The position numbers and the translations under genes are program-made. Below are positions 12,739 to 31,139 of a stretch of DNA of 33,538 bases, one piece after another. The notes below the pieces were generated by a model, which had not been told where the DNA came from, made no database searches, and saw only the letters and a list, made by a program, of their open reading frames with translations. The stretch covers positions 1-33,538 of the forward strand of contig JAANXG010000038.1 in the NCBI GenBank assembly GCA_018263405.1, in the 5' to 3' direction. The stretch comes from Gammaproteobacteria bacterium (lineage in GTDB: Bacteria > Pseudomonadota > Gammaproteobacteria > Arenicellales > JAANXG01). Numbering within the stretch: position 1 is the first letter of the stretch; the number at the start of each line of letters is the position of its first letter.

Positions 12739-12747
12739 ATTCTACCA
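12739..12747 (-). promoter_or_regulatory. Candidate extended -10 promoter element for the etfBA-led operon
   Basis: The minus sense reads TGgTAGAAT (TGn plus a 5/6 match to TATAAT), about 110 nt upstream of the etfB ATG. No good -35 box. A transcript from here would carry the 12656..12710 hairpin in its 5' UTR. Motif evidence only. Confidence 0.25.
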
Positions 12748-14602: not shown

Positions 14603-14635
14603 GCCGGGCCCAAGATTCGAATTGGCGGCACGGCA

Positions 14636-14669
14636 ACGGCCCGGAATCGAAGCATCCGGGCCGTTTTCT
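14636..14669 (+). terminator. Rho-independent terminator candidate after the second MttB-family gene
   Basis: The stem acggcccgg (14636..14644) pairs with ccgggccgt (14656..14664) across an 11-nt loop, followed by TTTTCT. It starts 34 nt after the stop codon. Confidence 0.55.
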
Positions 14670-14784
14670 AATTGCGTCACCGGATATTTCCTCCTATATT
14701 GCAGACGATTTGCGTTTTCGCTCGTTTCGGCGGGAATCGGTCGCGCACCGTTTGTGCGCTGCAAAGTGAGGCACGCTACCAATT

Positions 14785-15762: not shown

Positions 15763-15964
15763 TTGACGTTCAAAAAAACCCGGGCGACCGGCCACCATCA
15801 AGCGCCCTCCCGTCGCCGAATGTATGGCCGTGGGGTTGCATACATTCTTGCCGGCAATATCCTGCGCGGCACCGCCGGCCGGATCGAACAATCCGGTACG
15901 GTCGACGAGATATGAAACTTATTCCACAGAGGGGATTGAACTTGGACTTGCTCGGGACCACGTC

Positions 15965-17131
15965 ATGAATTTGCGCACGATCCGGTTGATCGCCGCCCTG
16001 TTGTTGGTTGGGTTGCCACTGGTAACGGGGTGGGCAGTGGGCTTCCCCGAGGGGTTTTTCGAGCTTCCGCCCAAAACAGTTTACATTGACCCGCCAAAGT
16101 TCTCGGTACCGTTGTATTCGTTCTTCACGGTACTTCTGTTTGTCGCTCTTTTCTTCTTGTGGGCGCCGCGGGTCTTTGGTTTCAACGGGCAAAGCCGGTC
16201 CGACTTCACTCCGTTTGACTGGACGGCCCCGCCGACTCACGGACATCGTTTTCCTGCCTGGGGTTGGGTTGGGATTGCCTTAATCGCCGCGAGCTGGCCG
16301 GCGGCTTGGACGCGTCCGGACTGGCTCGGCTCCGCCATCGATCATACCTTCTTTCCGCTTTGGCTCGGCTACATCCTAACCGTGGACGCTCTCACCTATC
16401 GCCGCGCCGGCACGAGTCCGATGTCCCGACACACCGTCGAGTGGCTGGCCTGGTTTCCAGCATCGGCTTTGACCTGGTGGTATTTCGAATTACTCAACCG
16501 GTTTATACAGAACTGGGTGTATCTCGGCATCGACCACTTCTCTTCGCTTCGCTACGTGTTGGGATCCACTCTCGCATTCGCTACGGTCATCCCGGCGGTT
16601 CTCACCACAGCGGCACTGCTTGGCACCTTCGATTATTTCCATGACCGTTTCGTTCGGACCGAACCGGGATACGCCGAATCGGTCCCGCGCCGTGGCGTAT
16701 GGTGGGGGTTGGTGGCGGCGGGGTCACTGGGCTTGACGGTAATGCCCTGGTTTCCGATCACGTTATTCGCCTTAATCTGGGTTGCCCCCCTGCTCATCCT
16801 CGCCGGCCTTCTGGAACAGGCGGGGATAAACACCGGAGTAGGCCACCTGCTGCGCGGGGATTGGGGGCCGATCGTTACACTGGCCGTGGCCGCTCTGATA
16901 TGCGGCTTTTTCTGGGAATTGTGGAACATCTACGCGCTACCGAAGTGGACCTACCAAGTACCCTGGGTAGACCGGTTCAAGTTGTTCGAAATGCCGCTCG
17001 CGGGTTACCTCGGCTACCTGCCGTTCGGCCCGGCATGCTGGATGTTCTGGCTGCTGCTGGCACCCCGCGCCGTGCAGGCAACGCCGAGACCTCAAGATAC
17101 AACAGTTTATCGGGGACTTCAAAGACGATAA
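15965..17131 (+). CDS. Polytopic inner-membrane protein of unknown function
   Basis: The ORF track begins at 15824. The ATG at 15965 (MNLRTIRLIAALLLVGLPLV) begins the first hydrophobic span. About 9-10 hydrophobic segments rich in Trp/Phe follow (WWYFELLNRFIQNWVYLG, FFWELWNIYALPKWTY). No family was recognised. The 3' end overlaps the convergent gene by 13 nt. Confidence 0.6.
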   Translation: MNLRTIRLIAALLLVGLPLVTGWAVGFPEGFFELPPKTVYIDPPKFSVPLYSFFTVLLFVALFFLWAPRVFGFNGQSRSDFTPFDWTAPPTHGHRFPAWGWVGIALIAASWPAAWTRPDWLGSAIDHTFFPLWLGYILTVDALTYRRAGTSPMSRHTVEWLAWFPASALTWWYFELLNRFIQNWVYLGIDHFSSLRYVLGSTLAFATVIPAVLTTAALLGTFDYFHDRFVRTEPGYAESVPRRGVWWGLVAAGSLGLTVMPWFPITLFALIWVAPLLILAGLLEQAGINTGVGHLLRGDWGPIVTLAVAALICGFFWELWNIYALPKWTYQVPWVDRFKLFEMPLAGYLGYLPFGPACWMFWLLLAPRAVQATPRPQDTTVYRGLQRR

Positions 17132-17904
17132 AGGCGACCGTATTCGTGCCGCCGCTCTTCGATTCCCGCCAGGCGCAGGCTGTGCCAGGCCATGGCATGA
17201 TTGCTGGCAGTGGCCGGCTTGCCCAGCGTCTTTTCGATATCGTCGATTACCTCGGCTACCCTCAAACTGGTACAGGACACGAAGACACCGTCCACTTGTT
17301 CGTGACGTCCAAGATCAATGGCGGCATCCTGAATAGATCCGGGCGTTATGCGACAGGCCTTTCTGTCGTCTTCTACATTGAACGATCCCATGACAGGCAC
17401 CTTAATGCCGGTGTCTTCGATATAGTCCCGTATGTGGTTATTAATGTCGTCGGTATAGGGCGTCAAAAGAGCGATCGCCTTCATACCGAGCTCACCGAAT
17501 GCCGCACGGGCGGCTGTAATAGGGGTTGTGCATCGACTGTCGGGACGCGCCGCTTTCATCAGATCCATTACCCGCTGTTCCCCGATTTCCATCGTGGCGG
17601 AAGTACAACCGTAGCCGATAACATCCATGCGCATCCCCGGCAGTAACAGGTCGGTGGCGGCGGTAATACGCGCCTCCATGGCCCGCAGGTTTTCCCGGGA
17701 TATGTCGTTGGAGTTGGTAAGCCGGCTTTGATAAACGGCGACACCCGGGAGATTCATAAGAAGCCGGTACTCGTACTCGATAGTCTGATCGCTGGACAGC
17801 ACCACGAGTCCAATGTTGGCGCGGGGACCAATCCCTTCGTCCGCTTCGAAGGAAAGGTGTTTCAAGTTGACTTCGGCGGCTACAGCATCGGCTTGAGTGA
17901 CCAT
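17119..17904 (-). CDS. Asp/Glu/hydantoin-racemase superfamily protein (maleate isomerase / arylmalonate decarboxylase / EutA-like)
   Basis: 261-aa ORF with its ATG 9 nt after a GAGG. It shows the family pattern IGLVVLSSDQTIEYEY, DVIGYGCTSAT, ALLTPYTDD, VFVSCTSLRV and ASNHAMAWHSLRLAG, with paired catalytic-position Cys in GCTS and SCTS. Confidence 0.7.
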   Translation of the reverse strand: MVTQADAVAAEVNLKHLSFEADEGIGPRANIGLVVLSSDQTIEYEYRLLMNLPGVAVYQSRLTNSNDISRENLRAMEARITAATDLLLPGMRMDVIGYGCTSATMEIGEQRVMDLMKAARPDSRCTTPITAARAAFGELGMKAIALLTPYTDDINNHIRDYIEDTGIKVPVMGSFNVEDDRKACRITPGSIQDAAIDLGRHEQVDGVFVSCTSLRVAEVIDDIEKTLGKPATASNHAMAWHSLRLAGIEERRHEYGRLYRL

Positions 17905-17919: not shown

Positions 17920-19164
17920 TCAGCGCAGGATCGGCGCCTGCATGGGCAATTCGGCATCTTTCCCATCGATCGCATCGGCCAGCAGCCGCGCCGTCCCGCA
18001 GGCCATCGTCCAGCCCATGTTGCCATGTCCCACATTCAAGTACAGATTGTCATACCGGCTCGAGCCGACGAACGGACGACCATTGGGGGTCATCGGCCGC
18101 AGGCAACTCCAGTATTCCGGACGGCCATAGTCTGCCGCATCGGGCATCAAGGCGGAAAATACTTCGATCATGTGATCGAAGTCGGCAGGTTTATACGATA
18201 CATCGTATCCGGCGATTTCGGCGGTCGAAGTTACCCGCAACCGGTCGCCGAGCCGGCTGAACGCGATCAAACGATCCTCGTCCACGCCTCCGATCGAGGG
18301 CGCGTGGTGGTCCTGCCCCACCGGGAATGTGACCGAATAACCCTTGACCGGATAAATCGGCAGATCGATGCCGATAGGCCGCGTCAGCCGTGGCGCCTCG
18401 ACGCCCGACGCGAGCACATAGATGTCGGCGTCGCGCTCGCCCGATGCCGTGCTCAGACATTTGACCCGGTTATTTTCCACCACCAACCGATCAACCGCGC
18501 AGTCAAACACAAACCGAACCCCCTGCTTCCTGCACGCTTCGGCCAGCTGCAACGAAAACAGTCTGGCATCCCCGCTTTCGTCCGTCGGGCAATACACGGC
18601 ACCGGCGATCTGACCGGTCGACTGAGCAAAAGCCGGTTCCCGTTCTACGACTTCATCCACGGTCAGTACGCGAATCTCGTGGCCCATGTCCTTTATGATT
18701 TCCCTGTGTTTTACCCCCTCCCGCAGAGCGGAATCGCTCCGAAAGACATACAACAGGCCGCCACGCCGCGAGTCGTAATTCAACCTTGCTTGTTCGGTCA
18801 CCTGGTGCAGACGCGACTGCGCGTACCGGCACAACCGGTATGCGTGGGCAGTGTTTTCGGCCGCGCGCCGATTGGTACACTGGCGGAGAAAGCTCAGACC
18901 CCAACACATCATGTGCCAATCCAGCCGGGGCCTCAGGCGATACGCCTGATCGGCGGTAAACAAGGACTTGAGCAGTATGCCGGGCACCTTCGGTGATGCC
19001 CAGGGCATGGCGTGCCCGGTTGCTATCAAGCCCGCGTTGGCATAGCTTGTCTCTGCGGCTGCCTCGGGCTGGCGGTCCAAAACAGTGACCGTGTGACCCG
19101 ACTGCGAGAGTTCCCAGGCCGCGGTCACCCCCGCCAGGCCCGCGCCGATCACGAGTGCGTCCAT
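17920..19164 (-). CDS. FAD-dependent oxidoreductase, D-amino-acid dehydrogenase (DadA)-like
   Basis: 414-aa ORF with an N-terminal dinucleotide fold (MDALVIGAGLAGVTAAWELSQSGHTVTVLDR) followed by ETSYANAGLI, as in DadA/DAO-family enzymes. Its stop lies 15 nt upstream of the next gene start on the same strand. Confidence 0.8.
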   Translation of the reverse strand: MDALVIGAGLAGVTAAWELSQSGHTVTVLDRQPEAAAETSYANAGLIATGHAMPWASPKVPGILLKSLFTADQAYRLRPRLDWHMMCWGLSFLRQCTNRRAAENTAHAYRLCRYAQSRLHQVTEQARLNYDSRRGGLLYVFRSDSALREGVKHREIIKDMGHEIRVLTVDEVVEREPAFAQSTGQIAGAVYCPTDESGDARLFSLQLAEACRKQGVRFVFDCAVDRLVVENNRVKCLSTASGERDADIYVLASGVEAPRLTRPIGIDLPIYPVKGYSVTFPVGQDHHAPSIGGVDEDRLIAFSRLGDRLRVTSTAEIAGYDVSYKPADFDHMIEVFSALMPDAADYGRPEYWSCLRPMTPNGRPFVGSSRYDNLYLNVGHGNMGWTMACGTARLLADAIDGKDAELPMQAPILR

Positions 19165-19354: not shown

Positions 19355-20194
19355 ATGACGAGTACGTCGCGTAGAATAGTGGCGGACTATACCTTGCCCC
19401 GCGGTAGTGGAACAAAGTTGAACAACGAGCTCGAAAGATTTGCACTCAATGGCAAGACCGTATTGATTACCGGTGCCTCGAGCGGCCTGGGCAGTCATTT
19501 CGCGCGAACCGTGGCAGCCGCCGGCGCCCGGACGGTACTCGCGGCGCGGCGCTTGGAGCGTCTCCAACAACTGCAAGAGGAAATCCGCTCGACGGGCGGA
19601 ACGGCATGTGTGCTGCCACTGGACGTTACGGACGCAGCCGGCGTGGAATCGGCCTATGACAGCGCCGAGGTACAATCCGGCGGTGTGGATATTCTGATCA
19701 ACAATTCCGGCGTAGCACTAGTCGCACCGGCCGTCGACATCAGCGAAAACGACTGGGACCGGCTGATCGATACCAACCTAAAGGGGGCGTGGTTAATGTC
19801 CCGGGGTTTCGCACGGCGCGCCATCGCCCGGCGGACGGGGGGTTCGATTATCAATATCACTTCGATTCTGGGCCGTCGGGTGGCCAAAGGCGTGGCCCCC
19901 TACTGTGCTTCCAAGGCGGCGCTGGAACACCTGACCCGGTCCCTGGCCCTGGAATGGTCACCCCACGGCATTCGCGTCAACTCCATCGCCCCGGGCTACT
20001 TCGACACCGAAATGAATCGGGATTTTCTGCAAAGCGGTCCCGGACAAGCTATGCTGAAACGTATCCCGCAACGCCGGGCCGGCTCCTTGGCAGAACTCGA
20101 CGGTGCACTGCTACTGCTGGCAAGCGATGCTTCCAGCTACATGAGCGGCAGCACCCTAGTGGTGGATGGCGGTCATCTTTGCTCCACGTTGTAA
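19355..20194 (+). CDS. Short-chain dehydrogenase/reductase (SDR)
   Basis: The ORF track begins at 19289. The ATG at 19355 is the last in-frame ATG upstream of the Rossmann motif, so the start remains uncertain. Motifs present are KTVLITGASSGLG (TGxxxGxG), NNSG, and catalytic S...YCASK (YxxxK). The stop lies 3 nt before the next ATG. Confidence 0.8.
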   Translation: MTSTSRRIVADYTLPRGSGTKLNNELERFALNGKTVLITGASSGLGSHFARTVAAAGARTVLAARRLERLQQLQEEIRSTGGTACVLPLDVTDAAGVESAYDSAEVQSGGVDILINNSGVALVAPAVDISENDWDRLIDTNLKGAWLMSRGFARRAIARRTGGSIINITSILGRRVAKGVAPYCASKAALEHLTRSLALEWSPHGIRVNSIAPGYFDTEMNRDFLQSGPGQAMLKRIPQRRAGSLAELDGALLLLASDASSYMSGSTLVVDGGHLCSTL

Positions 20195-20197
20195 GCC

Positions 20198-21397
20198 ATG
20201 GACTTTCAGCTCGATCCATTCGTCGAAGACCTGCGCACCCAGATCCATGCGTTTGTCGACAACCGCGTTATCCCGCTTGAACAGAATCCGGACGCCCTGG
20301 ATGAAGGTGGCAACATCGCCGAATCCCGGCTCAACGACTTGCGGGACAAGGCCAAGTCCGAAGGGTTGTGGTGCCTGCAGCTGCCCGAGCGCCTGGGTGG
20401 CCGGGGTTTGGGCAAAGCCGCCTTGGCGATCTGCTACGAGGAAATGAACCGTTCCATCTTCGGTCCGGTCGTGTTCAACAGCGCGGCGCCGGACGACGGC
20501 AATATGATGCTGCTGGAGAAAGCGGCCACCGAGGCCCAACAGGAGCGTTGGCTAAAACCAATTGCCGAAGGAATGGTTCGCTCGGCATTCGTCATGACCG
20601 AACCCCATCCCGGGTCCGGCTCTGACCCCGCCGGGATGATGCGCACAACGGCGTCCCGGGATAACGATCACTGGATCGTCCACGGGCATAAATGGTTCAT
20701 TACCGGCGCCGGCATCGCCCGGCATTTCATTCTGGTGGCACGGACCTCGAATGACCGGCGCAAAGGGCTAACCGCGTTTTTGTTCCACCGCGACGACCCG
20801 GGCTGGGAAATCGTACGCCGAATTCCGATCATGGGACCGGAAGAGCACGGCGGCCACTGCGAACTCGAATTCAACGGCCTGCGTATCCCCGACAGCAACC
20901 GTTTGATGGAAATCGGTGACGGTTTAAAAGTGACCCAGATCCGGCTCGGTTCGGCGCGCCTTACCCATTGTATGCGCTGGCTGGGTCTGGCACGCCGCTG
21001 CCTGGAAATTGCCGGCGAATATGTCGGCGAGCGCGAGGCATTCGGCTCGACGTTGGCGGAACACGAAGGCGTGCAATGGATGCTCGGCGAAGCGGCGATG
21101 GCGGTGCAGACCGGTCGCTTGCTGACGCTGCACGCTGCCTGGAAACTGGATCAGGGTAACTTCGCACGCAAGGAAATCTCCATGGCCAAAGTGGCCGTGG
21201 CCGATGCGCTGCAGAGGGCGGTAGATACCGCTATCCAACTCTGCGGCGCCAAAGGCTATTCCAAGGACACAGTGCTGGAGTGGATCTACCGCTACGCCCG
21301 ACAAGCAAGACTCGTGGACGGTGCCTCGGAAGTTCACAAAATGGTGCTGTCCAAGAATCTCATTAACGACCCAAATAGTTTTTGGTCATGGGATTAG
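20198..21397 (+). CDS. Acyl-CoA dehydrogenase family protein (ACAD10/11- and LvaC-like subtype suspected)
   Basis: 399-aa ORF with the ACAD fold pattern (FVMTEPHPGSGSDPAGM, HWIVHGHKWFITGAG, EREAFGSTLAEHEGVQWMLGEAAM). The C-terminal motif reads ARLVDGASEVHKMV, so Asp occupies the place where most ACADs have the Glu of the Y/I-E-G-T/S motif. Confidence 0.85.
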   Translation: MDFQLDPFVEDLRTQIHAFVDNRVIPLEQNPDALDEGGNIAESRLNDLRDKAKSEGLWCLQLPERLGGRGLGKAALAICYEEMNRSIFGPVVFNSAAPDDGNMMLLEKAATEAQQERWLKPIAEGMVRSAFVMTEPHPGSGSDPAGMMRTTASRDNDHWIVHGHKWFITGAGIARHFILVARTSNDRRKGLTAFLFHRDDPGWEIVRRIPIMGPEEHGGHCELEFNGLRIPDSNRLMEIGDGLKVTQIRLGSARLTHCMRWLGLARRCLEIAGEYVGEREAFGSTLAEHEGVQWMLGEAAMAVQTGRLLTLHAAWKLDQGNFARKEISMAKVAVADALQRAVDTAIQLCGAKGYSKDTVLEWIYRYARQARLVDGASEVHKMVLSKNLINDPNSFWSWD

Positions 21398-22413
21398 AAC
21401 TCGACGGACTGACTGATTTCATCAAGCAAGGAACCGAATCCAAGCGGATTTCGTTGACGTACAACCGGATAGACGGCGGCGCCATCCAGCAAAACTACGC
21501 TCTGGATATAGAGATCCATGACGGCCCGTGGCGCGGGTTTCGCGAGTGGGTACTGCGCACCGATTCACCTTCCGGCCTACAGATGAGCCATTCGCGCGAG
21601 AAAGAATTCCTATTATTGACCGCGGCTTTTGAAGCGGGCCTTACCGTTCCGAAGCCTTTGTGGCTATGCACCGATTCAACCGCCATCGGCCGGCCCTTCT
21701 ACGTTATGGCAAAGGTACCGGGAACGGCCGACGGCCGTCGCCTGGTTCAAACCAATTGGACAAAAGCGCAACGACGCGCGATCGTGGAGGTACTCGGCGG
21801 AGAACTGGCGCGCTTGCATGCCATCGACCCCGAGAACGCCGGGTTGTCCTTTCTTCAATCACGCCGGGCGTCGTCATCCATCGAACGTATCGATCGATAC
21901 CGTACCTATCTGGACGAGCTATCCGACCCGCAACCGGTTCTGGAATGGGGACTGCGCTGGCTGGAGCTGAACGCTCCCTCCCGCGAGGAAACAGCCCTGT
22001 GCCATGGCGATTTCAGAACCGGCAACATTATGATCGCCGGCGACCGAGTGAGCGGTATTCTCGACTGGGAATTCGCCGGCTACAGTAACCCGGTCGAGGA
22101 TCTCGGCTGGTACTGTGCGCGGTGTTGGCGCTTCGGCGCGGATGGTTTCACAGCCGGCGGCATCGGCGAAAAAGAGGACTTTGTGCGTGCTTATGAGCAG
22201 GCCTCCGGCCGGCGCGTCGACCGCGATGAACTTGTCTACTGGCAGATCATGGCCGAAGCCCGCTGGGCCGTGATCGCTCTGCAACAGACCGACCGACACT
22301 TATCCGGGCGGGAATCGTCGCTGGAACTCGCGCTCACCGGCTACCTGGTCCCGGAAATGGAGCTGAACCTGATCCACAGCATCGAACGATCCATCCATGC
22401 ATCGGCCGATTAA
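21388..22413 (+). CDS. APH-type phosphotransferase / kinase family protein
   Basis: The ORF track starts at TTG 21382. The ATG at 21388 overlaps the ACAD stop by 10 nt. The catalytic loop is HGDFRTGNIMI (HxDxxxxN) and the metal-binding motif is ILDWEFAGY. Length is about 341 aa. Confidence 0.8.
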   Translation: MGLELDGLTDFIKQGTESKRISLTYNRIDGGAIQQNYALDIEIHDGPWRGFREWVLRTDSPSGLQMSHSREKEFLLLTAAFEAGLTVPKPLWLCTDSTAIGRPFYVMAKVPGTADGRRLVQTNWTKAQRRAIVEVLGGELARLHAIDPENAGLSFLQSRRASSSIERIDRYRTYLDELSDPQPVLEWGLRWLELNAPSREETALCHGDFRTGNIMIAGDRVSGILDWEFAGYSNPVEDLGWYCARCWRFGADGFTAGGIGEKEDFVRAYEQASGRRVDRDELVYWQIMAEARWAVIALQQTDRHLSGRESSLELALTGYLVPEMELNLIHSIERSIHASAD

Positions 22414-22542
22414 CCCGCTCCTGGTGACCGCGCGAGGCTCTTGAATCCGTTCTCCGTGAATCCGCTGCGGATCAACCGAATTAACTACCGTGTCCCCGGA
22501 ACTTGGAAGCGAGTGCCGCGCCGGGTTATGCAGGGATACGTT

Positions 22543-23793
22543 TCATGCTGTCGGGCCGACGCTGTCGAGAAAATACCGGAACAACACGGGTTCCTGCCGC
22601 TTGAGACGGGCGCGCAAGGCCATGGCTCGCTCTTGCCCGGCCTTCGTGTTCTCGTTGCCACGTTCCACTTGGGTGCGGACATGGTCGCGCTGTATCCGGT
22701 CCACGGTCCGGTAACTCGCGGGACACACCATCCCACTGCCGGCGGGCTTGGGCAATATCCGGGTCAACCCGGGTTTGTTCAACAACAGCCACGCCGGGAA
22801 TGACTGGGTCGGCAGCTCCGGATCCAGTTCCAGGAAACTTACCCACTGCCGGCCCAGTTCCTGGTCGCCGCTGGTTTCGAGCGCATCGCTTTGCTCGGGA
22901 AATCGCCAGCACAGCTCGAACCAGCTTTGCAGCGCCGCAGCCCGCTGGTGCAGGTGATCGCAGGCCTGAGCATGGCGGCGCAACAACACGGAGTCGGCCC
23001 GCCAATCGGCTTCGCGCTCTACCGCCCGGCGGACCGTGCCCCAGTCCATCGCGCGGTTGGCCGTATAACTCAGGTGCAGATCGGGATGCGATGCCCGGTA
23101 GGATCGCCCGTGTAGGGCGGCGGACAAACGCCGCCACAACGGGATTAGTAGGTTGCGGCTGTTTTTACCCAGCAGGCTTTCAGCCAACGGCGTCAGCCAT
23201 TGCTGCAGGTTCCGCAGCTCGTCGGCGACATCGTCCACCGGCGTGTCCAGGACTTCTACCGCTTTCACCAGACGCTCCAATTCCCCCAAACGGGCATGGT
23301 CCGGAGCGGTGTCGTAAAGCCGTTCCAGACCATGGCGAGCCTCAACCGGGTTCCGCTCCGCCAGCGCCAGGACGATGGCATTGGCTAGGTTGGTGGCCGG
23401 TGCGTCCGTGAACAGGTCCATCTGCGGCTGGTCTCGCGGCTTACGATAGCGCCGGAGAAAACAGCGCTCGAAGGCCTCGTTCGCGCTGAATCTCAGCGGC
23501 GCCGACGCCGCTTGCACGGCGGTCGGCGGATCAACATCTGACCAGGTCGTATAGGCGATGGATTCCGCCTGCCAGCCGCGGCGCTGCAAGTAGTCTTCCG
23601 CTTCCAGCAGTTGTTGCCGAATACGTTCGGGGTCGCCGAACAATGCCCGATCGAGAAAATCCAGCTCGCCATTACGCCAGGCCTCGTAATCGGCGAAAGC
23701 CAGGCATCCCTCCCGCAGCAGGAGCTCCAAGGGCAGGTACTCGCCTCGTTCCAGCAGGAGTTGGTCGACGTAGTAGTGGATGTGTTCGGTCAT
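22543..23793 (-). CDS. Hypothetical cytoplasmic protein (416 aa), no recognised family
   Basis: A long ORF with balanced Leu/Glu/Arg/Asp-rich helical composition (MTEHIHYYVDQLLLERGEYLPLELLLREG...). The overlapping ORFs 22526..23137 (same strand, different frame) and 22800..23411 (antisense) are Arg/Pro/Gly-rich shadows. No TM segment or signal peptide. Confidence 0.55.
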   Translation of the reverse strand: MTEHIHYYVDQLLLERGEYLPLELLLREGCLAFADYEAWRNGELDFLDRALFGDPERIRQQLLEAEDYLQRRGWQAESIAYTTWSDVDPPTAVQAASAPLRFSANEAFERCFLRRYRKPRDQPQMDLFTDAPATNLANAIVLALAERNPVEARHGLERLYDTAPDHARLGELERLVKAVEVLDTPVDDVADELRNLQQWLTPLAESLLGKNSRNLLIPLWRRLSAALHGRSYRASHPDLHLSYTANRAMDWGTVRRAVEREADWRADSVLLRRHAQACDHLHQRAAALQSWFELCWRFPEQSDALETSGDQELGRQWVSFLELDPELPTQSFPAWLLLNKPGLTRILPKPAGSGMVCPASYRTVDRIQRDHVRTQVERGNENTKAGQERAMALRARLKRQEPVLFRYFLDSVGPTA

Positions 23794-23840
23794 GGGGTCA
23801 ATGCCCCGGCAGTACGAATAGAAGTATGGCCCCCATCTCC

Positions 23841-24110
23841 CTAGTGTACCCCGTCACTGATATTGCAACATTCAGAGCGTGCCGGAGCCGCCAGTGGAAG
23901 GCGCGATCCGCAGTGAATGGCCCAGTCCTTTACCAGGAGTGCAACGCCCCAATGGTGGCTCAGGCGCGCTCCCTTCGGGCGGCCCGGAAAGCGATCATCC
24001 GCGGCGTTATGTCTGTTGAGAAGGGCGCACCATTCCCGGCGAGACAGGCCTTGCGGCTCACCGCTTTCCGGGCCGCTGAACGTTACAATATCAGTGACGG
24101 GGTGCACTAG
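23841..24110. mobile_element. 270-bp non-autonomous MITE-like element with ~31-bp terminal inverted repeats and a CTAG target-site duplication
   Basis: The left end is ctag|tgtaccccgtcactgatattgcaacattcag (23841..23875). The right end is ctgaacgttacaatatcagtgacggggtgca|ctag (24076..24110). The arms match at 28 of 31 positions and both ends carry CTAG. There is no internal transposase-size ORF; the two ORF-track entries ending in NISDGVH are the mirrored TIRs. Confidence 0.7.
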
Positions 24111-24180
24111 CTTGAAATACGCTCGAACACAACACGCCGGCCAGGTTAACAGCGTTATTGAAGGTCGAATTTTGGATGCG
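24108..24180 (+). repeat. Direct repeat, left copy, bracketing the AT-rich insert
   Basis: tagcttgaaatacgctcgaacacaacacgccggccaggttaacagcgttattgaaggtcgaattttggatgcg is repeated at 25710..25781 with about 4 mismatches and 1 indel. The last 36 nt are identical. Confidence 0.85.
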
Positions 24181-24583
24181 TAGCGGGCGACGAATTATTC
24201 CGGGCACCCCGCCCTCCACTCCTACGGGACCGGCCTTTGGCCGTTTAAATACGTTCCCGCCGCATTTGTTCAGCGGCTCCAGGATGACATGGGTCGTGCC
24301 GTTGCGATACGGTGTTTCCCCCGGAAGGGCCTTTTCACTACAAGACATAGGGTTTATCCTCTCTCTCTTATCCGTGATAACAACTTTTATCGGTATCACC
24401 CTGGTATCGGTATCACCTCCGACACCTTTGTCTCTGCCAATATCGAGCGGGGACCGGGAACGATTGAGTCTTTAAGCGATCTGACCGTACTACAAACGCT
24501 GATTGCTTTGGCACTGCTTGGAGTTTTCACGTTAATGCCGACAATCTACAGACAAATCAAAACTCGTAAAAAGGAAAATCAAC

Positions 24584-25175
24584 ATGTCATTCAAAGGCAA
24601 AACAGCAATCATTACCGGTTCAACAAGCGGAATTGGTTTAGGCATCGCGCAAGGTTTTGCAACACAAGGAATTAATATCGTCATGAACGGATTTGGTGAT
24701 GAAGGCGAAATTGAAAAGGAACGCGCCGCACTGGAGGAAACGGGTGTCCGGACTGTTTATAACGGCGCAGACATGACCAAGCCGCATGAAATTACGGCAA
24801 TGATTGAAGATACGGTGAAAGAATTCGGTTCTGTTGATATGGTACTCAATAATGCAGGCATACAATTATGTCGCGCCGGTTGAAGAGTTCCCGCCGGAAA
24901 AATGGGACGCCATTGTTGCGATTAACATGTCATCAAGCTTTCATACGGTACGCGCTGCTATCCCCCATATGAAGAAACAAGGCTGGGGGCGTATTATAAA
25001 TATCGCCTCGGCGCACGGCCTTGTCGCTTCGCCTTTCAAGAGTGCCTATGTGACAGCCAAGCACGGCATTTTGGGCTTTGTCAAAACCATTGCCCTGGAA
25101 GTGGCACAGGACAACATCACCGTCAACGCGATTTGCCCCGGTTATGTGCTCACGCCTTTAGTGGAAAAACAGATA
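24584..25175 (+). pseudogene. bdhA: 3-hydroxybutyrate dehydrogenase remnant: +1 frameshift near 24866 and loss of about 60-70 C-terminal codons
   Basis: Frame A reads MSFKGKTAIITGSTSGIGLGIAQGF...VDMVLNNAGIQ and then stops at 24883. Frame B continues with YVAPVEEFPPEKWDAIVAINMSSSFHTVRAAIPHMKKQGWGRIINIASAHGLVASPFKSAYVTAKHGILGF...NAICPGYVLTPLVEKQI. Joined, the two frames give a near-canonical BdhA. One extra nucleotide in caa-t-tat (about 24866) breaks the frame, and the sequence ends abruptly after VEKQI. An RBS (aaggaaa) is retained 7 nt before the ATG. Confidence 0.8.
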
Positions 25176-25180
25176 GTCGC

Positions 25181-25648
25181 GATGTGGTAATTGTCCATAT
25201 CAATCCAATGGAACGTCCTGAAACCCCGACAACCGCGCCGGAGATCATGAACCGCCTCAATGAGATCAGCTTCAATTCCTCCCTCTTAAAAGAAATGCGG
25301 GCTATCGCCTTCGTTAAGAAACTGGTTGAACATGATATACTCAAAGACGAGCATAAGCATGATTTCAAGGATGTGCTGGTCCATTCGGTTCGCGCCGATG
25401 AAGCTTTGTGCGATTTATCTGTTGCCAGCAAATTCGATTCCGACTGGGATTTTCTGACCATGCTCCGCGATAGGGGTCGCGAGACTATGGCGTCATGGCT
25501 TGATGAACATTTTGATGATATCTGCGTGCGCGATACGGTCGCCCTGCATGGAGAATTTTTGAACTCGAACACAAGGCTGTTTGAAGACAAGCACGGCAAT
25601 CACAGACATCGTCATAAAGAAGCCGAATCCGGAAAGAAAACCGCCTAA
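25181..25648 (+). pseudogene. C-terminal fragment of a patatin-like phospholipase (DUF3734-type tail); the catalytic N-terminal domain is missing
   Basis: DVVIVHINPMERPETPTTAPEIMNRLNEISFNSSLLKEMRAIAFVKKLVEHDIL...DWDFLTMLRDRGRETMASWLDEHF matches the conserved C-terminal region of bacterial patatin-like proteins. No GxSxG or oxyanion-hole region precedes it, and it abuts the truncated bdhA directly. Confidence 0.7.
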
Positions 25649-25709
25649 GGGCTCGCGTAAAAAGTCGGTTCACGTGGGATTGTGCCACAAATAGAACCCC
25701 CTATCTCCT

Positions 25710-25781
25710 TAGCTTGAAATCCGCTCGAACACAACACACCGATCAGTTAACAGCGTTATTGAAGGTCGAATTTTGGATGCG
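25710..25781 (+). repeat. Direct repeat, right copy, bracketing the AT-rich insert
   Basis: See 24108..24180. The sequence is tagcttgaaatccgctcgaacacaacacaccgatcagttaacagcgttattgaaggtcgaattttggatgcg. Confidence 0.85.
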
Positions 25782-25835
25782 CGGCTGGCGAAATCGTTTT
25801 TTTGCTGGTGCCCGCGCACTTCTTAGTCGCCTAAG

Positions 25836-26174
25836 ATGAATAAACCGAGTAATGCACCGGCGCCGGACGAACTGCTGTCGACGGCGCGTGAGGCGCTCAA
25901 GACCATGCTGCGAGAGTCGGACGCATACCACGCCTACACGATTTTAATGGCCATGAACGCCATGGGCATTGCGGCACGGGCCATGCGGGCCGAGGAGCCC
26001 GTTCCCGTTCGCGCCCCGGAAATTGATATGCCTTTCAAGGAATGGGTACGGCAGGGGGACGAGTCCGCCGTCACCGACCCCGGGCTGTTGCGGAACCTGC
26101 GCCGCCACGTGGCGCAAAAACTCGCCGTGGCCAACCCCCGCTTTCGAGCCGAGGCAGCGAAGGAGACACCGTGA
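25836..26174 (+). CDS. Small DUF6285-like protein (candidate LvaB-type kinase partner)
   Basis: 112-aa ORF. It shows the pattern P-x-ELL-x-A-x-EAL, then helical MAMNAMGIAARAM, then a C-terminal RRHVAQKLAVANPRF, recalled from the small proteins that accompany APH-kinase/ACAD pairs. Its TGA overlaps the GTG start of the next gene (GTGA). Confidence 0.6.
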   Translation: MNKPSNAPAPDELLSTAREALKTMLRESDAYHAYTILMAMNAMGIAARAMRAEEPVPVRAPEIDMPFKEWVRQGDESAVTDPGLLRNLRRHVAQKLAVANPRFRAEAAKETP

Positions 26175-29100
26175 CCGGTTTTCTCAAAGACGTCCGGATC
26201 GACGACAAGTATACCGTCGAGGACGGTCGGATCTTTGTCACCGGTATCCAGACCTTGGTGCGGCTGCCGATGCTCCAGCACCAGCGCGACCTCGCGGCCG
26301 GCCATCGCACGGGAGGATATATCACGGGTTACCGCGGCTCGCCTCTTGGCGCCCTCGACCTGCAGTTGCAGCAGGCGCGGGAGCATCTCGACGCTCACCA
26401 TATTACTTTTTCGCCGGCGGTTAACGAGGACTTGGCGGCCACGGCCCTGTGGGGAAGCCAGCAGGCGGAGCTCGACGGTGAGGGTCGCTTCGACGGCGTC
26501 TTCGGTATGTGGTACGGAAAAGGACCGGGAGTGGACCGCTCCGGCGACGCCCTGCGTCACGCCAACCTGGCGGGGACCTCGCCTCTGGGCGGCGTATTGG
26601 TTGTGATGGGCGACGATCACGCCTGTGAATCCTCCACGACATGTCACCAGAGCGAACCGGCCATGATGGACGCGATGATTCCGGTGTTGAGCCCGGCAGG
26701 CGTCCAAGACATCGCGGATTTTGGTTTGTACGGCTGGGCACTATCCCGTTACAGCGGATGCTGGGTGGGATTAAAATGCGTCCACGACACCGTGGAAGCC
26801 ACCGCTTCCATCGATATCTCGCCGGGCCGCGTCCATATCGCGCTGCCGCCCAATTTCGAGCCGCCCGACGGCGGCCTGAATATCCGCTGGCCGGACACGC
26901 CCCGGGAACAGGAGCGCCGTCTGCACGCATACAAGCACCGCGCCGCCCAGGCCTTCACTCGGGCCAACGGCCTGGACCGCGTGATCCTTGATGCCGAAGA
27001 CGCATGCATCGGTATTGTCACTGCCGGCAAGTCCTACCTCGATGTCAGGCAGGCCTTACGCGAACTCGGTATCGACGAACGGGAAGCAAAGCGTCTCGGT
27101 ATCCGCCTATACAAGGTCGCCATGACCTATCCCCTGGAACCGTCGGGTATCCGTCGATTCTGCCGCGGCCTCGAGCGCGTCGTGGTGGTAGAGGAAAAAA
27201 GCGGTATCGTGGAAGACCAACTGAAAAGCATTCTGTTCAATGAGGCCAACAGACCCCAAGTAGTCGGCAAACACGACCTGAATGACACGCAGCTCTTTCC
27301 CTCCGCGGGGCGCCTTGAGTCCAACCAGATTGCCCGCGAACTGGGTCGGCAAATCCTGGGGCTTCGAACCGACGTTGCACTCGAGGACCGGCTGGGTCGC
27401 TTCGTCGAACGGCTGGAGGCGGCGCCGGCCGGTCACGTCGCCCCCATGATTCGCACGCCTTACTTCTGCTCCGGCTGTCCCCATAACACTTCGACGCTCG
27501 TACCGGAAGGCAGCAAGGCACTGGCGGGCATCGGCTGCCACTACATGGCGCAATGGATGGACCGCGACACCGCCCGGTCCACTCATATGGGCGGCGAAGG
27601 CGTAAGCTGGGTCGGCCAGGCGCCGTTCAGCACCCGTCCCCACATGTTTCAGAACATCGGCGACGGCACCTATTATCACTCCGGACTGCTCGCCATACGC
27701 GCCGCCATTGCCGCGGGCACCAATATTACGTTCAAGATTCTGTATAACGATGCCGTGGCCATGACCGGTGGCCAACCGGTGGACGGGCCGTTGTCCCCCG
27801 AGCAGGTTACCTGGCAGGTTTACGGCGAAGGGGCCAAGCGCATTGCCCTGATCAGCGACGAACCCGACAAGTACCGGCAGGACGACCTGGCGCCGGAGGT
27901 GGCCGTGCATCACCGGGACGTATTGAACGACGTACAACGGTCGTTCAGGGAAACACCGGGCACCACGGTGATTGTCTACGAACAGACTTGCGCCGCGGAA
28001 AAACGCCGGCGACGTAAACGCGGTACCTATCCGGACCCCGCTAAGCGTGTATTCATTTACGACCGAGTGTGCGAAGGGTGCGGCGACTGCGGCGTGCAAT
28101 CCAACTGCGTTGCCATCCTGCCCAAGGACACGGCATTCGGCCGCAAACGGGAAATCGACCAATCGGCGTGCAACAAGGATTTCTCCTGCCTGAAGGGTTT
28201 CTGCCCCAGCTTCGTAACGGTATACGGCGGTACACCGAAACAGGGCATCAGCGACGCCCGCGCCGTCGATCAGGCACTCGATGGCTTGCCGGAACCGGAA
28301 CAGCCGCCGATCGACGGCACTTACGATATCGTCCTGACCGGCGTCGGGGGCACCGGGGTGGTCACCGTCGGGGCCATACTCGGGATGGCGGCCCATGTCT
28401 CCGAAAAGGGTTGTTCGGTGCTGGACATGATGGGCCTGGCGCAGAAGGGCGGCGCGGTCATGAGCCATATTATCCTGGCCAACGACCCGGCGGATGTGGC
28501 GGCCACACACGTGCCGGTGGCAGGCGCCGACCTGCTTCTGGGCTGCGACATGGTGGTCGCGGCCGGCCCCGATGCCATCACCCGTGCCCAACCCGGTACG
28601 ACACAGGCCGTGGTGAATGAATTCGAGCTGATGACGGGGGACTTTACCCACGACCCCGACAAGGGGTTTCCAGCGGAGAAGTTGAAGTCAGTCATCCGTG
28701 AACACACCGGGCCGGAGAACGCGTTGTTCGTCAATGCCACAGTCCTGGCGACACGGTTGCTCGGCAACTCCATCGGCGCCAATATGTTCCTCCTGGGGTG
28801 TGCCTACCAGATAGGCCGGCTCCCGCTTCATCGCGCCGCCATACATAAAGCCATCGAGCTCAACGGCCAGGCGGTGGATATGAATCAACGGGCATTCGGA
28901 CTGGGACGTCTCTACGCGCTCGATCCCGAACAAGTCCGGCGCCTGGCCTACCCCGCCACCACCCCCTTAAAGCAGATCCCTCGTACGCTGGAGGAAATCG
29001 TCGCGCATCGTACCGATCAGTTGCGCGACTATCGAAGCCAAGCATACGCCAACCGATACCGCGAGGCGGTGGAGGGCGTCACACAAGCCGAGCGCGACAA

Positions 29101-29641
29101 AGCCAAGGGCTTCGAGGGGCTAGCGTTGAGGGCGGCGCACAACCTGTACTCGGTCATGGCCTACAAGGATGAGTACGAAGTGGCGCGGTTGTTTACATCT
29201 ACCGAATTCCGCAATCAACTCACCGAAACCTTCGAAGGCGGCTATAAGATCGAATTCAATCTGGCGCCGCCGCTTCTCAGCCGGCCCGATCCGCGAACCG
29301 GGCGACCGCGCAAAATACGCTTGGGTCCCGGGATGATGAGCGTATTCAGAATACTCAGTGCGCTACGCGGATTGCGGGGTACATCGTTTGACGTATTCGG
29401 CTGCTCGCGCGCGCGCCGGGTGGAGCGCCGGATGATTGACGATTACCTGGCTGATATCGATCTGGTAACCCAATGCCTGGATTCCCGAAACCACAAACTG
29501 GCCCTGAACTTGCTGAGCTGGCCGGAGACAGTAAGGGGCTTCGGAGACATCAAATTCGCCGTCCTCGAAAAAGCCACGAAGCGGCGGGATGACCTTCGAG
29601 CTGCGCTGCAGGCACCCCCTGGAGAGCGGACGGCCGCTTGA
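26171..29641 (+). CDS. Indolepyruvate:ferredoxin oxidoreductase family protein (fused alpha-beta 2-oxoacid:ferredoxin oxidoreductase)
   Basis: The ORF track begins at 26042, but that extension is Arg/Pro junk overlapping the upstream gene. The GTG at 26171 lies 5 nt after AGGAGA and gives the family-typical N-terminus VTGFLKDVRIDDKYTVEDGRIFVTGIQTLVRLPMLQHQRD...GYITGYRGSPLG. Also present are a TPP-binding GDGTYYHSG and the Cys clusters YFCSGCPHN and CEGCGDCGVQSNC...CNKDFSCLKGFCPSF. Length is about 1156 aa. Confidence 0.85.
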   Translation: MTGFLKDVRIDDKYTVEDGRIFVTGIQTLVRLPMLQHQRDLAAGHRTGGYITGYRGSPLGALDLQLQQAREHLDAHHITFSPAVNEDLAATALWGSQQAELDGEGRFDGVFGMWYGKGPGVDRSGDALRHANLAGTSPLGGVLVVMGDDHACESSTTCHQSEPAMMDAMIPVLSPAGVQDIADFGLYGWALSRYSGCWVGLKCVHDTVEATASIDISPGRVHIALPPNFEPPDGGLNIRWPDTPREQERRLHAYKHRAAQAFTRANGLDRVILDAEDACIGIVTAGKSYLDVRQALRELGIDEREAKRLGIRLYKVAMTYPLEPSGIRRFCRGLERVVVVEEKSGIVEDQLKSILFNEANRPQVVGKHDLNDTQLFPSAGRLESNQIARELGRQILGLRTDVALEDRLGRFVERLEAAPAGHVAPMIRTPYFCSGCPHNTSTLVPEGSKALAGIGCHYMAQWMDRDTARSTHMGGEGVSWVGQAPFSTRPHMFQNIGDGTYYHSGLLAIRAAIAAGTNITFKILYNDAVAMTGGQPVDGPLSPEQVTWQVYGEGAKRIALISDEPDKYRQDDLAPEVAVHHRDVLNDVQRSFRETPGTTVIVYEQTCAAEKRRRRKRGTYPDPAKRVFIYDRVCEGCGDCGVQSNCVAILPKDTAFGRKREIDQSACNKDFSCLKGFCPSFVTVYGGTPKQGISDARAVDQALDGLPEPEQPPIDGTYDIVLTGVGGTGVVTVGAILGMAAHVSEKGCSVLDMMGLAQKGGAVMSHIILANDPADVAATHVPVAGADLLLGCDMVVAAGPDAITRAQPGTTQAVVNEFELMTGDFTHDPDKGFPAEKLKSVIREHTGPENALFVNATVLATRLLGNSIGANMFLLGCAYQIGRLPLHRAAIHKAIELNGQAVDMNQRAFGLGRLYALDPEQVRRLAYPATTPLKQIPRTLEEIVAHRTDQLRDYRSQAYANRYREAVEGVTQAERDKAKGFEGLALRAAHNLYSVMAYKDEYEVARLFTSTEFRNQLTETFEGGYKIEFNLAPPLLSRPDPRTGRPRKIRLGPGMMSVFRILSALRGLRGTSFDVFGCSRARRVERRMIDDYLADIDLVTQCLDSRNHKLALNLLSWPETVRGFGDIKFAVLEKATKRRDDLRAALQAPPGERTAA

Positions 29642-29832: not shown

Positions 29833-30666
29833 ATGGTTGACAAAATTGCCGCGTCGATAGAGATAACTCCAAGACAAGCGATGGAAAGCGACGATCTGCC
29901 CGGGCTCTTTCCCAAGGGCGTGCGGGTGTACATGACGGACGTCGGCACGGACACCACCGAAACGATCACCGCGGGGGCGGCGCGCCTCAATGAACTGGGA
30001 TATGTCTCTGTCCCTCATTTCGCGTCCCGGCGCCTTACCACCCGAAAAGACCTGGAAAAACGCGTCAGGATGCTCGCTGAAGAAGCCCGAGTGAATGATG
30101 TGTTGATCATCGGCGGCGGCCTGGATAAACCGGCGGGCGAGTTTGCGTCGTCCATGGATATGCTGGAAACAGGGTTGTTTGACAAATACGGCATCAAACG
30201 GATCGGCATCGCGGGACATCCCGAAGGGTCCCCGGATTTCTCGAATCAGGCAGCGGAGGAGGCGCTACGACTCAAGCAGGCATTCGCCGGGCGCACGGGC
30301 GCCGAGATGCGGATCGTGACCCAGTTCGGATTCGATGCGCCCGGTTTCATTCGCTGGGCCAACGGTCTGCAGGAAGCCGGTATTAATCTGCCCGTACATT
30401 TGGGGGTTGCCGGACCAGCGAAGCTGACGACACTGGTCAGGTTTGCCGTGATGTGTGGCGTCGGAGCTTCGACTCAATTCATCAAGAAGCGCGCTGCATC
30501 GATCGGCACGTTGGTCAAGGGGTTCGACCCGGAAGAAGTCATCAAACCTATCGAGGAGCACGTCAACGAATCCGAGCAGACGCCCATCAAACAAATTCAT
30601 GTCTTCGCCTTCGGCGGGATGAAAAAATCAGCCGAGTGGCTCAAGGCCCGCGGGAGCTGGGTTTAA
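29833..30666 (+). CDS. Methylenetetrahydrofolate reductase family protein (MetF-like)
   Basis: 277-aa ORF with an ATG after GAGG. It follows the MTHFR TIM-barrel pattern: ASIEITPR, PHFASRR, VLIIGGG, IGIAGHPEGSPD, RIVTQFGFD, PVHLGVAGP and HVFAFGG. Confidence 0.7.
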   Translation: MVDKIAASIEITPRQAMESDDLPGLFPKGVRVYMTDVGTDTTETITAGAARLNELGYVSVPHFASRRLTTRKDLEKRVRMLAEEARVNDVLIIGGGLDKPAGEFASSMDMLETGLFDKYGIKRIGIAGHPEGSPDFSNQAAEEALRLKQAFAGRTGAEMRIVTQFGFDAPGFIRWANGLQEAGINLPVHLGVAGPAKLTTLVRFAVMCGVGASTQFIKKRAASIGTLVKGFDPEEVIKPIEEHVNESEQTPIKQIHVFAFGGMKKSAEWLKARGSWV

Positions 30667-30890
30667 ACTTCAACCGGTACCGCCTTTCTTTAGCGCGATC
30701 CACGAGTGGATCGCAAGGGTGGCGATGACAAGCCACCAAAACCAGAATGTACCCGGGATAGCTTCGGCCCTGAGGAGCCGGCGATTATACGGATGAACCC
30801 CAATTACGGCGATACACAGTGGGGAATCGCGCCACAAGAAACACGTTACAATGTGAGGTCGAAACCCATCGCATAAAGAGAGCGTATAGT

Positions 30891-31112
30891 ATGAAACCTT
30901 TCATCGCCGGCCTGTTAATCGGGTTAATTGTCGCCTTTCCGCTGGGCATGAACGTAGGGAAGGGCAATCCAGTATTCAGCAATCCTTTCGCTAATAAACC
31001 CCTGTCCGAACAAATCGGGGATGCGGCCAAGAGTGCTTCGGAAAAACTGAAGGAGAAAACCGGTGAGCTCATGCAGAACGCCGAAGACGCCGTGAACGAG
31101 GCGGCGGAGTAA
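30891..31112 (+). CDS. Small membrane-anchored hypothetical protein (73 aa)
   Basis: The ATG at 30891 follows AAGAGAG. The N-terminal TM segment is MKPFIAGLLIGLIVAFPLGM, followed by a Lys/Glu/Ala-rich helical tail (SEKLKEKTGELMQNAEDAVNEAAE). The upstream extension to 30819 in the ORF track looks non-coding. Confidence 0.45.
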   Translation: MKPFIAGLLIGLIVAFPLGMNVGKGNPVFSNPFANKPLSEQIGDAAKSASEKLKEKTGELMQNAEDAVNEAAE

Positions 31113-31139
31113 ATCCGGGAGCTTTGAATACGGTATGCT

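Follow-up and report, generated by a model that had tools for sequence, protein, structure and literature searches.

Introduction

In Pseudomonas putida, the lva operon encodes a kinase (LvaA) with a small partner (LvaB), an acyl-CoA dehydrogenase (ACAD)-family protein (LvaC), and a short-chain dehydrogenase/reductase (SDR; LvaD), which act on 4-hydroxyvaleryl-CoA via a 4-phospho intermediate. This phospho-elimination route for 4-hydroxy acids was reportedly found in bacteria in 2017, and the mammalian proteins ACAD10 and ACAD11 are said to have been shown to run it in 2024–25. To our knowledge, the natural bacterial substrates of the route beyond the industrial chemical levulinate are not known. 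Here, we analyze a related gene cluster at positions 19,355–29,641 of a gammaproteobacterial contig (JAANXG010000038.1, assembly GCA_018263405.1; the whole analyzed stretch of 33,538 nucleotides is referred to as the window).

The cluster is read as two adjoining transcription units. The first contains genes for an SDR, an ACAD, and an APH-family kinase; the second contains a gene for a small DUF6285 protein, a fused gene of the indolepyruvate:ferredoxin oxidoreductase (IOR) family, and a gene resembling methylenetetrahydrofolate reductase (MTHFR). We give slightly better than an even chance to the reading that this region encodes a variant of the Lva/ACAD10–11-type 4-hydroxyacyl-CoA phospho-elimination pathway in which the thioester would be made from a 2-oxoacid by the IOR and not by an ATP-dependent ligase.

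The SDR, ACAD, and kinase resemble LvaD, LvaC, and LvaA

The genes of the first unit are tightly packed, as described in a first-pass annotation of this DNA. The SDR stop codon (TAA, 20,192–20,194) is followed by three nucleotides (gcc) and then by the ACAD start codon (ATG, 20,198), and the kinase start codon (ATG, 21,388) precedes the ACAD stop codon (TAG, 21,395–21,397), giving a 10-nt overlap. The 3-nt gap recurs in related locus L001, and the 10-nt overlap recurs in both L001 and L009 (L-numbers denote the loci and contigs used for comparison; those that share the layout of the window come from marine metagenome-assembled genomes (MAGs) or contigs, some labeled Arenicellales). The SDR start given in the first-pass annotation calls for revision: alternative starts lie upstream at 19,355 and 19,289, and we prefer the TTG at 19,418 because it gives a 258-aa protein, as in relatives such as L001 and as called on other contigs from this species. 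Searches against Pfam and NCBIfam agreed with every domain call in the module.

The SDR shares 52.3% of 256 aligned residues with LvaD (E = 2e-77), and the kinase shares 49.7% of 324 with LvaA (E = 3e-114). The best PDB matches to the kinase were 3dxp and the kinase domain of ACAD11, with the HGDF..N catalytic motif aligned; HGDFRTGN in the kinase corresponds to HGDFKLDN in ACAD11, and the kinase carries the catalytic HGD..N and DWE motifs of an LvaA-type enzyme.

The ACAD is 44.1% identical to LvaC. Its best PDB matches were human and mouse ACAD11 (3e-69 and 5e-69), followed by 4hr3, a mycobacterial putative ACAD of unassigned type (1.3e-63). Named ordinary ACADs in the same search reached 2e-49 or worse, placing ACAD11 ~20 orders of magnitude ahead of them. 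In ACAD11, Arg626, His634, and Arg637 of the 'HCMR' helix and the catalytic Asp753 are common only to ACAD10/11 and LvaC (PMC12440821). All four residues are kept in the window ACAD, in the motifs QIRLGSARLTHCMRW and RLVDGASEVH, and an alignment to 8v3u likewise showed R..THCMR and the Asp to be conserved. The Asp of VDGASEVH occupies the alignment column of Asp753 in ACAD11 and of the matching Asp in LvaC; ordinary ACADs have the Glu of their YEGT motif there. The alignment places no Glu at the catalytic position, in agreement with the earlier observation that VDGASEVH stands where ordinary enzymes have the catalytic-Glu motif. Together, the ACAD10/11/LvaC signature and the search results indicate that this protein is not of the ordinary FadE type.

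The small DUF6285 protein is related to LvaB at the family level

The 112-aa open reading frame (ORF) of the second unit scored 38.1 bits against Pfam DUF6285 (cut-off 28.1), with a profile match restricted to its C-terminal 35 residues. The family alignment, which includes kinase-linked DUF6285 proteins of Pseudomonas, spans the full length of the ORF, and the shared motifs are kept. All 41 of its 41 database homologues carry PF19802. Values of dN/dS were 0.16–0.32 between the window and its relatives (0.10–0.32 across all computable pairs), with dS saturated. Given these homologues, the dN/dS values, and the full-length alignment, we regard the ORF as a real gene.

To relate this protein to LvaB, we used a complete RefSeq-annotated lva operon (lvaR/lvaABCDEFG) found by tblastn of plasmids on p12939-PER of P. 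aeruginosa (NZ_MF344569.1; L100). Its LvaB (7990–8346), named '4-hydroxypentanoyl-CoA kinase subunit' in RefSeq, matched Pfam DUF6285 with 85.3 bits, which identifies LvaB as a DUF6285 protein. A hidden Markov model (HMM) of the window clade matched LvaB at E = 2e-20; pairwise BLAST of the window ORF against LvaB was not significant (E = 7), so we assign the two to one family and claim no closer relationship. With that proviso, the earlier suggestion of a DUF6285-like, LvaB-related protein holds. Judged by sequence, the SDR, ACAD, kinase, and small protein are thus homologues of LvaD, LvaC, LvaA, and LvaB, respectively.

Other searches added little. Neither LvaB nor the window ORF matched NCBIfam (release 20) at any threshold, and the literature searched on DUF6285 yielded nothing, including no statement equating DUF6285 with LvaB. 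A PDB sequence search with the DUF6285 protein returned no match; an AlphaFold model (pLDDT 69.5, pTM 0.40) contained four to five helices, and a Foldseek comparison of this model to the PDB gave nothing with E < 2. The window protein contains no Cys and no cofactor motif. A metagenome scan with the DUF6285 alignment recovered only one more locus, and a word-indexed search from a Pseudomonas DUF6285 protein recovered close relatives only.

A fused IOR gene is coupled to the DUF6285 gene

The DUF6285 stop codon (TGA, 26,172–26,174) overlaps the GTG start codon of the IOR gene (26,171) in the sequence GTGA, as previously read, and a Shine-Dalgarno sequence, AAGGAGA, lies 6 nt 5' of this GTG. Based on the overlap and the Shine-Dalgarno sequence, we call the two genes translationally coupled. 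The IOR matches NF009589 over its full length (1590.6 bits against a cut-off of 816) and is 65–80% identical over the full length to its relatives; the GDG..ND motif for thiamine pyrophosphate (TPP) and the CxxCxxC Cys-rich motifs are invariant in the alignment, and the gene is intact. Enzymes of this class convert a 2-oxoacid and CoA to an acyl-CoA and CO2. The word 'indolepyruvate' in the family name is presumably a label only and no guide to the substrate of the window enzyme. The literature searched for DUF6537, and for IOR together with an ACAD and a phosphotransferase, yielded nothing.

The order (SDR)-ACAD-APH-spacer-DUF6285-IOR-(MTHFR-like) recurs throughout the window clade and is kept in L001–L010, L013/14, and L101; the SDR gene is missing in L012, L013, and L102. 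Because the same gene set was found again in at least eight independent related contigs, the arrangement is more than chance, and synteny of the IOR with a kinase/ACAD pair was seen in every close relative examined. The DUF6285 and IOR genes share 4 nt or are separated by 5 nt at most in all seven lineages read (window, L001, L005, L007, L009, L010, and L013); for L101, tblastn coordinates alone suggest a gap of ~20–30 nt. No locus of this clade has an insertion between these two genes, and in all of them the DUF6285 gene lies apart from the kinase gene. Outside the IOR-linked loci, kinase and DUF6285 genes sit side by side or overlap; this is the case in lva proper, Azoarcus, L012/L102, and three clusters of Pseudomonas type.

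In the window, 3422 nt separate the end of the kinase gene (22,413) from the start of the DUF6285 gene (25,836), which had been taken to mean that the small partner gene was detached. The separation itself is correct, and a comparison of spacers removes its special meaning. The spacer measures 122 nt in L013/14 and 414 nt in L001–L004 (Arenicellales MAGs), and has no content in either group apart from one short ORF call in L002. In L010, it measures ~0.9 kb and holds a peroxiredoxin gene on the opposite strand; in L101, it measures ~1.1 kb. L009 has a DUF222 gene in a spacer of 1.3 kb, L007/8 have a gene for a 927-aa molybdopterin oxidoreductase on the opposite strand in 3.0 kb, and L005 has four unrelated genes in 5.6 kb. 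The 3.4 kb of the window contain a conserved hypothetical gene, a miniature inverted-repeat transposable element (MITE), and a low-GC pseudogene fragment. In all, the spacers differed in content in eight ways. Since the spacer is found clade-wide with different cargo in each lineage, the 3.4-kb separation is one case of repeated insertion. The ancestral state is a near-contiguous cluster, and the spacer is an insertion hot spot across the clade; the 'detachment' is not a functional design.

A ligase gene is absent from the IOR-linked clusters

The first-pass annotation had reported no acyl-CoA synthetase in this region, and our searches bear this out. No AMP-binding (PF00501) ligase gene was found in the window or in its kinase-type IOR-linked relatives (L001–L010, L013/14), and tblastn with LvaE returned nothing in the window or the related loci. 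Among clusters of non-IOR type, three of five distinct types have an AMP-binding gene within 10 kb.

The ACAD/SDR-IOR association extends beyond loci with a kinase

A scan with the IOR alignment, using one genome per species, yielded at least 80 distant loci with IORs 49–61% identical to that of the window (the sample is not random). A DUF6285 or APH gene lies within 10 kb in 0 of the 80 loci listed. Thirteen of these 80 have, within 10 kb upstream of the IOR gene, an ACAD gene whose product is 61–69% identical to that of the window, and 11 of the 13 also have an LvaD-like SDR (45–56% identity); the loci concerned fall into two separate IOR clades. The complete R..THCMRW/VDGASEVH signature was present in 12 of 12 aligned ACADs from kinase-less IOR loci. 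Because these 13 loci pair an ACAD with an IOR in the absence of a kinase or DUF6285 gene, the ACAD/SDR-IOR link is broader than the kinase/DUF6285-IOR link.

Two arrangements account for these loci. On two Arenicellales MAG chromosomes (L016, 6283–16,162; L022, 6248–17,948), genes for a TPP enzyme, an SDR, an Asp-type ACAD, an IOR, a Glu-type ACAD, and an aldehyde dehydrogenase are directly adjacent in that order, with no kinase or DUF6285 gene within 10 kb, and the IOR sits between two ACADs inside a CoA-pathway operon. In 11 alphaproteobacterial loci belonging to one IOR clade (two Xanthobacteraceae and two Pseudolabrys by label), an SDR-ACAD pair without a kinase lies 0.1–6.5 kb upstream of the IOR gene. 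Neighbor-joining trees (no support values) placed the IORs of kinase-containing loci in a single clade, with the Arenicellales kinase-less loci among its neighbors, and united the ACADs of L016/L022, the IOR-less L012, and the full loci in one gammaproteobacterial clade beside an alphaproteobacterial one. These comparisons indicate that the IOR linkage is real, conserved, and mainly with the ACAD/SDR pair. Either kinase-less loci draw on a kinase encoded elsewhere in the genome, or a kinase is dispensable for some members of this ACAD clade. As a separate matter, the TPP enzymes near L016/L022 and the Azoarcus clusters were considered as a shared component and dropped, being only 26% identical.

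Genomic neighborhood and spacer content

Coordinates of the module and of the surrounding features are collected in Table 1.

Table 1. Features of the module, its spacer, and its neighbors in the window
Feature	Position	Strand	Evidence
LvaD-like SDR, putative 4-oxoacyl-CoA reductase	19418..20194	+	Pfam adh_short, 196 bits
LvaC/ACAD10-11-type ACAD, putative 4-phosphoacyl-CoA phosphate eliminase	20198..21397	+	Three ACAD domains
LvaA-like APH-family kinase, putative 4-hydroxyacyl-CoA kinase	21388..22413	+	Pfam APH, 150 bits
LvaB-like DUF6285 protein, 112 aa, predicted all-helical, putative kinase partner	25836..26174	+	Pfam DUF6285
Fused IOR-family 2-oxoacid oxidoreductase, 1156 aa	26171..29641	+	NF009589; Pfam POR and DUF6537
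D-amino acid dehydrogenase (DadA-like), divergent from the SDR operon, candidate 2-oxoacid supplier	17920..19164	-	NF001933, 438.7 bits (cut-off 383)
Asp/Glu-racemase-superfamily gene, divergent upstream neighbor	17119..17904	-	Pfam Amdase; best NCBIfam match ectoine-utilization EutA, below cut-off
MTHFR-like gene, conserved neighbor downstream of IOR	29833..30666	+	68–78% identical in L001, L005, L007, L010
Conserved hypothetical gene, 416 aa, convergent; inserted cargo outside the module	22543..23793	-	Homologue search
Multicopy MITE, 270 bp, 35-nt terminal inverted repeats	23841..24110	.	Inverted repeat, 91% complementarity
Direct repeat, copy 1, 83 nt	24108..24190	.	90% identical to copy 2
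Low-GC (45–50%) inserted fragment	24191..25709	.	GC profile
Direct repeat, copy 2, 44 nt upstream of DUF6285 start	25710..25791	.	Repeat comparison
Betaine-homocysteine S-methyltransferase	9706..10755		
Two non-Pyl MttB homologues	7976..9538, 13046..14602		

Genes upstream of the SDR suggest a connection to amino acids. The D-amino-acid dehydrogenase (DAO) gene, often accompanied by a RidA gene, is conserved in IOR-linked relatives (L005 and L009) and also next to ACAD-APH-DUF6285 in relatives without an IOR (L012 and L102). Racemase-like homologues 69–75% identical to that of the window occupy the same position in L001, L009, and L013. The rest of the window (3711–17,131 and 29,833–33,158) is filled by a betaine and methylamine demethylation island, which in addition to the betaine-homocysteine S-methyltransferase and MttB homologues of Table 1 encodes two OYE-type Fe-S flavoenzymes, ETF alpha and beta, an AraC/DJ-1 regulator, the MTHFR-like protein, and the corrinoid activator RACo. 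The island also contains a conserved 388-aa ORF without a family match (15,965–17,131), and at its left edge lies a 581-aa TPR-sulfotransferase fusion (1067–2812, + strand) that is unrelated to the module.

The spacer had been described as holding an orphan gene, a MITE, and an AT-rich insert; the MITE and the low-GC insert were recovered, and the gene is no orphan. We found 538 representative homologues of its product, 138 of them at E <= 1e-30, in a family of ~400 aa with no Pfam, NCBIfam, or PDB match. Other contigs from this species carry the gene, and the related loci lack it. The MITE shows the characteristics of its class, being short, non-coding, bounded by terminal inverted repeats, and present in many copies: reads from four marine metagenome runs covered it 70–100 times as deeply as its flanks, many different flanks occur at its edges (23,840/23,841 and 24,110/24,111), and contigs of several samples break there. 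Relatives of the MITE occur at other sites in related MAGs (L001, 18,990–19,068; L005, 18,796–18,917). Its ends lie in CTAG...CTAG, where a TA duplication could not be told apart from the repeat termini.

The low-GC fragment, 1.6 kb in length, is bracketed by direct repeats of about 84 nt, which are too long to be a target-site duplication. It contains a frameshifted, truncated SDR gene at ~24,585–25,190 (a partial Pfam adh_short profile match) and an ORF fragment at 25,133–25,648 with no identity assigned. Read depth over the fragment equaled that of its flanks in four runs, placing it in the same genome as the flanks. Misassembly as a cause of the 3.4-kb separation was considered and rejected because, along with this depth, unitigs of the four runs overlap consistently and the two repeat copies differ at ~10% of positions. 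Scans of the spacer for Rfam families, tRNAs, promoters, and terminators gave nothing above background.

Discussion

A putative ligase-free phospho-elimination pathway

The proposal that this is a related phospho-elimination module is strengthened by the Lva homologies and the ACAD signature, and none of the three contrary outcomes named for it (a small ORF with no DUF6285 or LvaB similarity, an ACAD of FadE type with a catalytic Glu, or an IOR never syntenic with kinase/ACAD pairs) came about. The accompanying suggestion, offered as speculation, that the IOR might feed the module gains from the synteny and from the missing ligase. Beyond the homologies, signatures, synteny, and absence of a ligase, we infer the reaction of the IOR, its substrate, and what the DUF6285 protein does.

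In the pathway that we favor, the IOR would oxidatively decarboxylate a 5-oxo- or 5-hydroxy-2-oxoacid to a 4-oxo- or 4-hydroxyacyl-CoA and reduced ferredoxin. The SDR would reduce the 4-oxo group; the kinase, with its DUF6285 partner supplied in trans, would phosphorylate the 4-hydroxyl; and the ACAD would eliminate phosphate to give a 2-enoyl-CoA for beta-oxidation. Lva chemistry would require that C5 of the 2-oxoacid bear a hydroxyl or an oxo function, the latter accounting for the LvaD-like reductase. It is probably amino-acid-derived, via the neighboring racemase-like gene and D-amino-acid dehydrogenase. A fuller version of this scheme is possible, and we put it forward tentatively: a product of amino-acid or osmolyte breakdown would be racemized and oxidized to the 5-oxo- or 5-hydroxy-2-oxoacid, the IOR would convert it directly to a 4-substituted acyl-CoA, conserving the energy of the thioester and yielding reduced ferredoxin, and the Lva-like enzymes would act next, with the DUF6285 protein, co-translated with the IOR, possibly forming a physical link from IOR to kinase. 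As pure speculation, the substrate could be the 2-oxoacid of 5-hydroxylysine or 2,5-dioxopentanoate, the latter yielding crotonyl-CoA by way of 4-hydroxybutyryl-CoA.

Several observations weigh against a dedicated IOR-fed pathway. The actual substrate is a guess, and a search for RNA-seq runs containing the region found none. In L012 and L102, whose kinases are ~56% identical to that of the window, the order is ACAD-APH-DUF6285 followed by a lactamase_B/rhodanese gene, without an IOR. There, the DUF6285 gene overlaps this unrelated neighbor, so its overlap with the IOR gene may be plain operon compaction. No Lva-like gene accompanies the IOR in 67 of the 80 distant loci listed, and the IOR family is therefore not dedicated to an Lva-like pathway. 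Loci with an ACAD, SDR, and IOR and no kinase or DUF6285 gene show that a gene for the kinase step need not be nearby. In the alphaproteobacterial loci, the SDR-ACAD pair can be as far as 6.5 kb from the IOR gene, and the genes after the IOR encode an AMP-binding protein and a Liv-type ABC transporter. Finally, the MTHFR-like and RACo genes, conserved downstream neighbors of the IOR, suggest another possible role for this enzyme.

In the rival that we take most seriously and nevertheless consider rather unlikely, the Lva-like module is real, and the IOR is functionally unrelated to it and serves the betaine/corrinoid-methyltransferase island, either by oxidizing ordinary amino-acid-derived 2-oxoacids or by supplying low-potential reduced ferredoxin for RACo, with adjacency reflecting inherited order and compaction. 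The MTHFR-like gene is always next to the IOR gene in the clade, and genes for RACo, a pterin-binding methyltransferase, and B12-binding proteins are nearby; the L012/L102 overlap and the majority of IOR-family loci listed without Lva-like genes also fit. However, an ACAD and SDR lie beside the IOR in L016/L022 and in the alphaproteobacterial clade, both of which lack corrinoid and MTHFR-like genes, and the kinase-type IOR-linked loci have no CoA ligase.

It is improbable that the ACAD/kinase clade instead acts on some other acyl-CoA whose leaving group is anionic or good for another reason, with a kinase that is optional or directed at a different hydroxyl. The full R..HCMR..D signature in kinase-less SDR-ACAD-IOR loci, the missing SDR in L012/L013/L102, and the modest identity to LvaC (44%) would be consistent with such a shift. 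Yet every ACAD11 residue for the 4-phosphate is conserved, and the identities to LvaA (50%) and LvaD (52%) are higher. In addition, kinase and ACAD orthologues from another bacterial genus, Burkholderia, are reported to substitute in vitro for the ACAD10 domains with 4-hydroxyhexanoyl-CoA as substrate (PMC11342911). The passages that describe this make no mention of a small subunit, so the kinase may or may not depend on DUF6285.

A switch of the DUF6285 protein in this clade from serving the kinase to being an accessory IOR subunit would explain the tight coupling in the seven lineages read and the insertions that always fall on the kinase side, but it is very improbable given that none of the 80 other IOR-family loci listed has a DUF6285 gene, that the protein lacks Cys and cofactor motifs and retains the motifs common to kinase-linked DUF6285 proteins, and that everywhere else DUF6285 follows an APH kinase.

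If the IOR-fed phospho-elimination pathway is correct, it would provide the first testable pathway context for the large uncharacterized family of fused IORs in aerobic Proteobacteria. A cluster with an IOR in place of a CoA ligase, beside a D-amino-acid dehydrogenase in a betaine island, points to amino-acid- or osmolyte-derived 2-oxoacids as a physiological source. The tie between DUF6285 and LvaB, together with kinase-less loci that carry the same ACAD clade, puts a finer point on the question of how kinase and small subunit each contribute.

Comparison with described systems

The lva operon is represented here by L100, in which a prpR-like regulator is followed by genes for the kinase, LvaB, ACAD, SDR, acyl-CoA synthetase, a DUF485 protein, and a symporter. 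The window shares homologues of all four core enzymes, presumably with the same conversion of 4-oxo to 4-hydroxy to 4-phospho to enoyl-CoA. It lacks the LvaE acyl-CoA synthetase, the LvaF/G transporter, and the sigma-54 regulator LvaR, and its gene order is D-C-A...B rather than A-B-C-D. Whereas lvaA and lvaB overlap by 4 nt in L100, the lvaB-like gene of the window is distant from the kinase gene and overlaps the IOR gene instead. The D-amino-acid dehydrogenase, racemase-like, and betaine-demethylation genes are also neighbors unlike those of lva.

Among mammalian proteins, ACAD11 provides the closest solved structure to the window ACAD, and both the pocket residues and the kinase-domain homology are shared with ACAD10/ACAD11. 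In the mammalian proteins, kinase and ACAD are fused in one polypeptide; in the window, they are encoded by separate, overlapping genes and accompanied by a DUF6285 partner, a counterpart of which was not found in ACAD11. The context in the window, unlike that of ACAD10/11, is bacterial amino-acid/osmolyte catabolism.

Clusters of the type APH-DUF6285(-phosphatase)-ACAD in Pseudomonas, Azoarcus, and other Proteobacteria (L011, L098, L099, L103, L012, and L102) share with the window the kinase family (47–54% identity; ~56% in L012/L102), DUF6285, and an Asp-type ACAD. They differ in the contact between their DUF6285 and kinase genes, in having no IOR, and in the AMP-binding ligase that is often near. 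In L011 (10,435–11,166), L103 (9429–10,184), and L099 (8355–9032), the gene immediately after DUF6285 is of phosphatase type (2-phosphosulfolactate-phosphatase-like or histidine phosphatase); no such gene is present in the window clade.

Lastly, the window IOR shares its full-length match and its TPP and Fe-S motifs with the fused 'IOR family protein' of Proteobacteria (NF009589/NF009588) and IorAB. Measured against that family, among the 80 loci listed, a DUF6285 gene coupled to the start of the IOR gene, with a kinase/ACAD pair upstream, is a feature of the window clade only.

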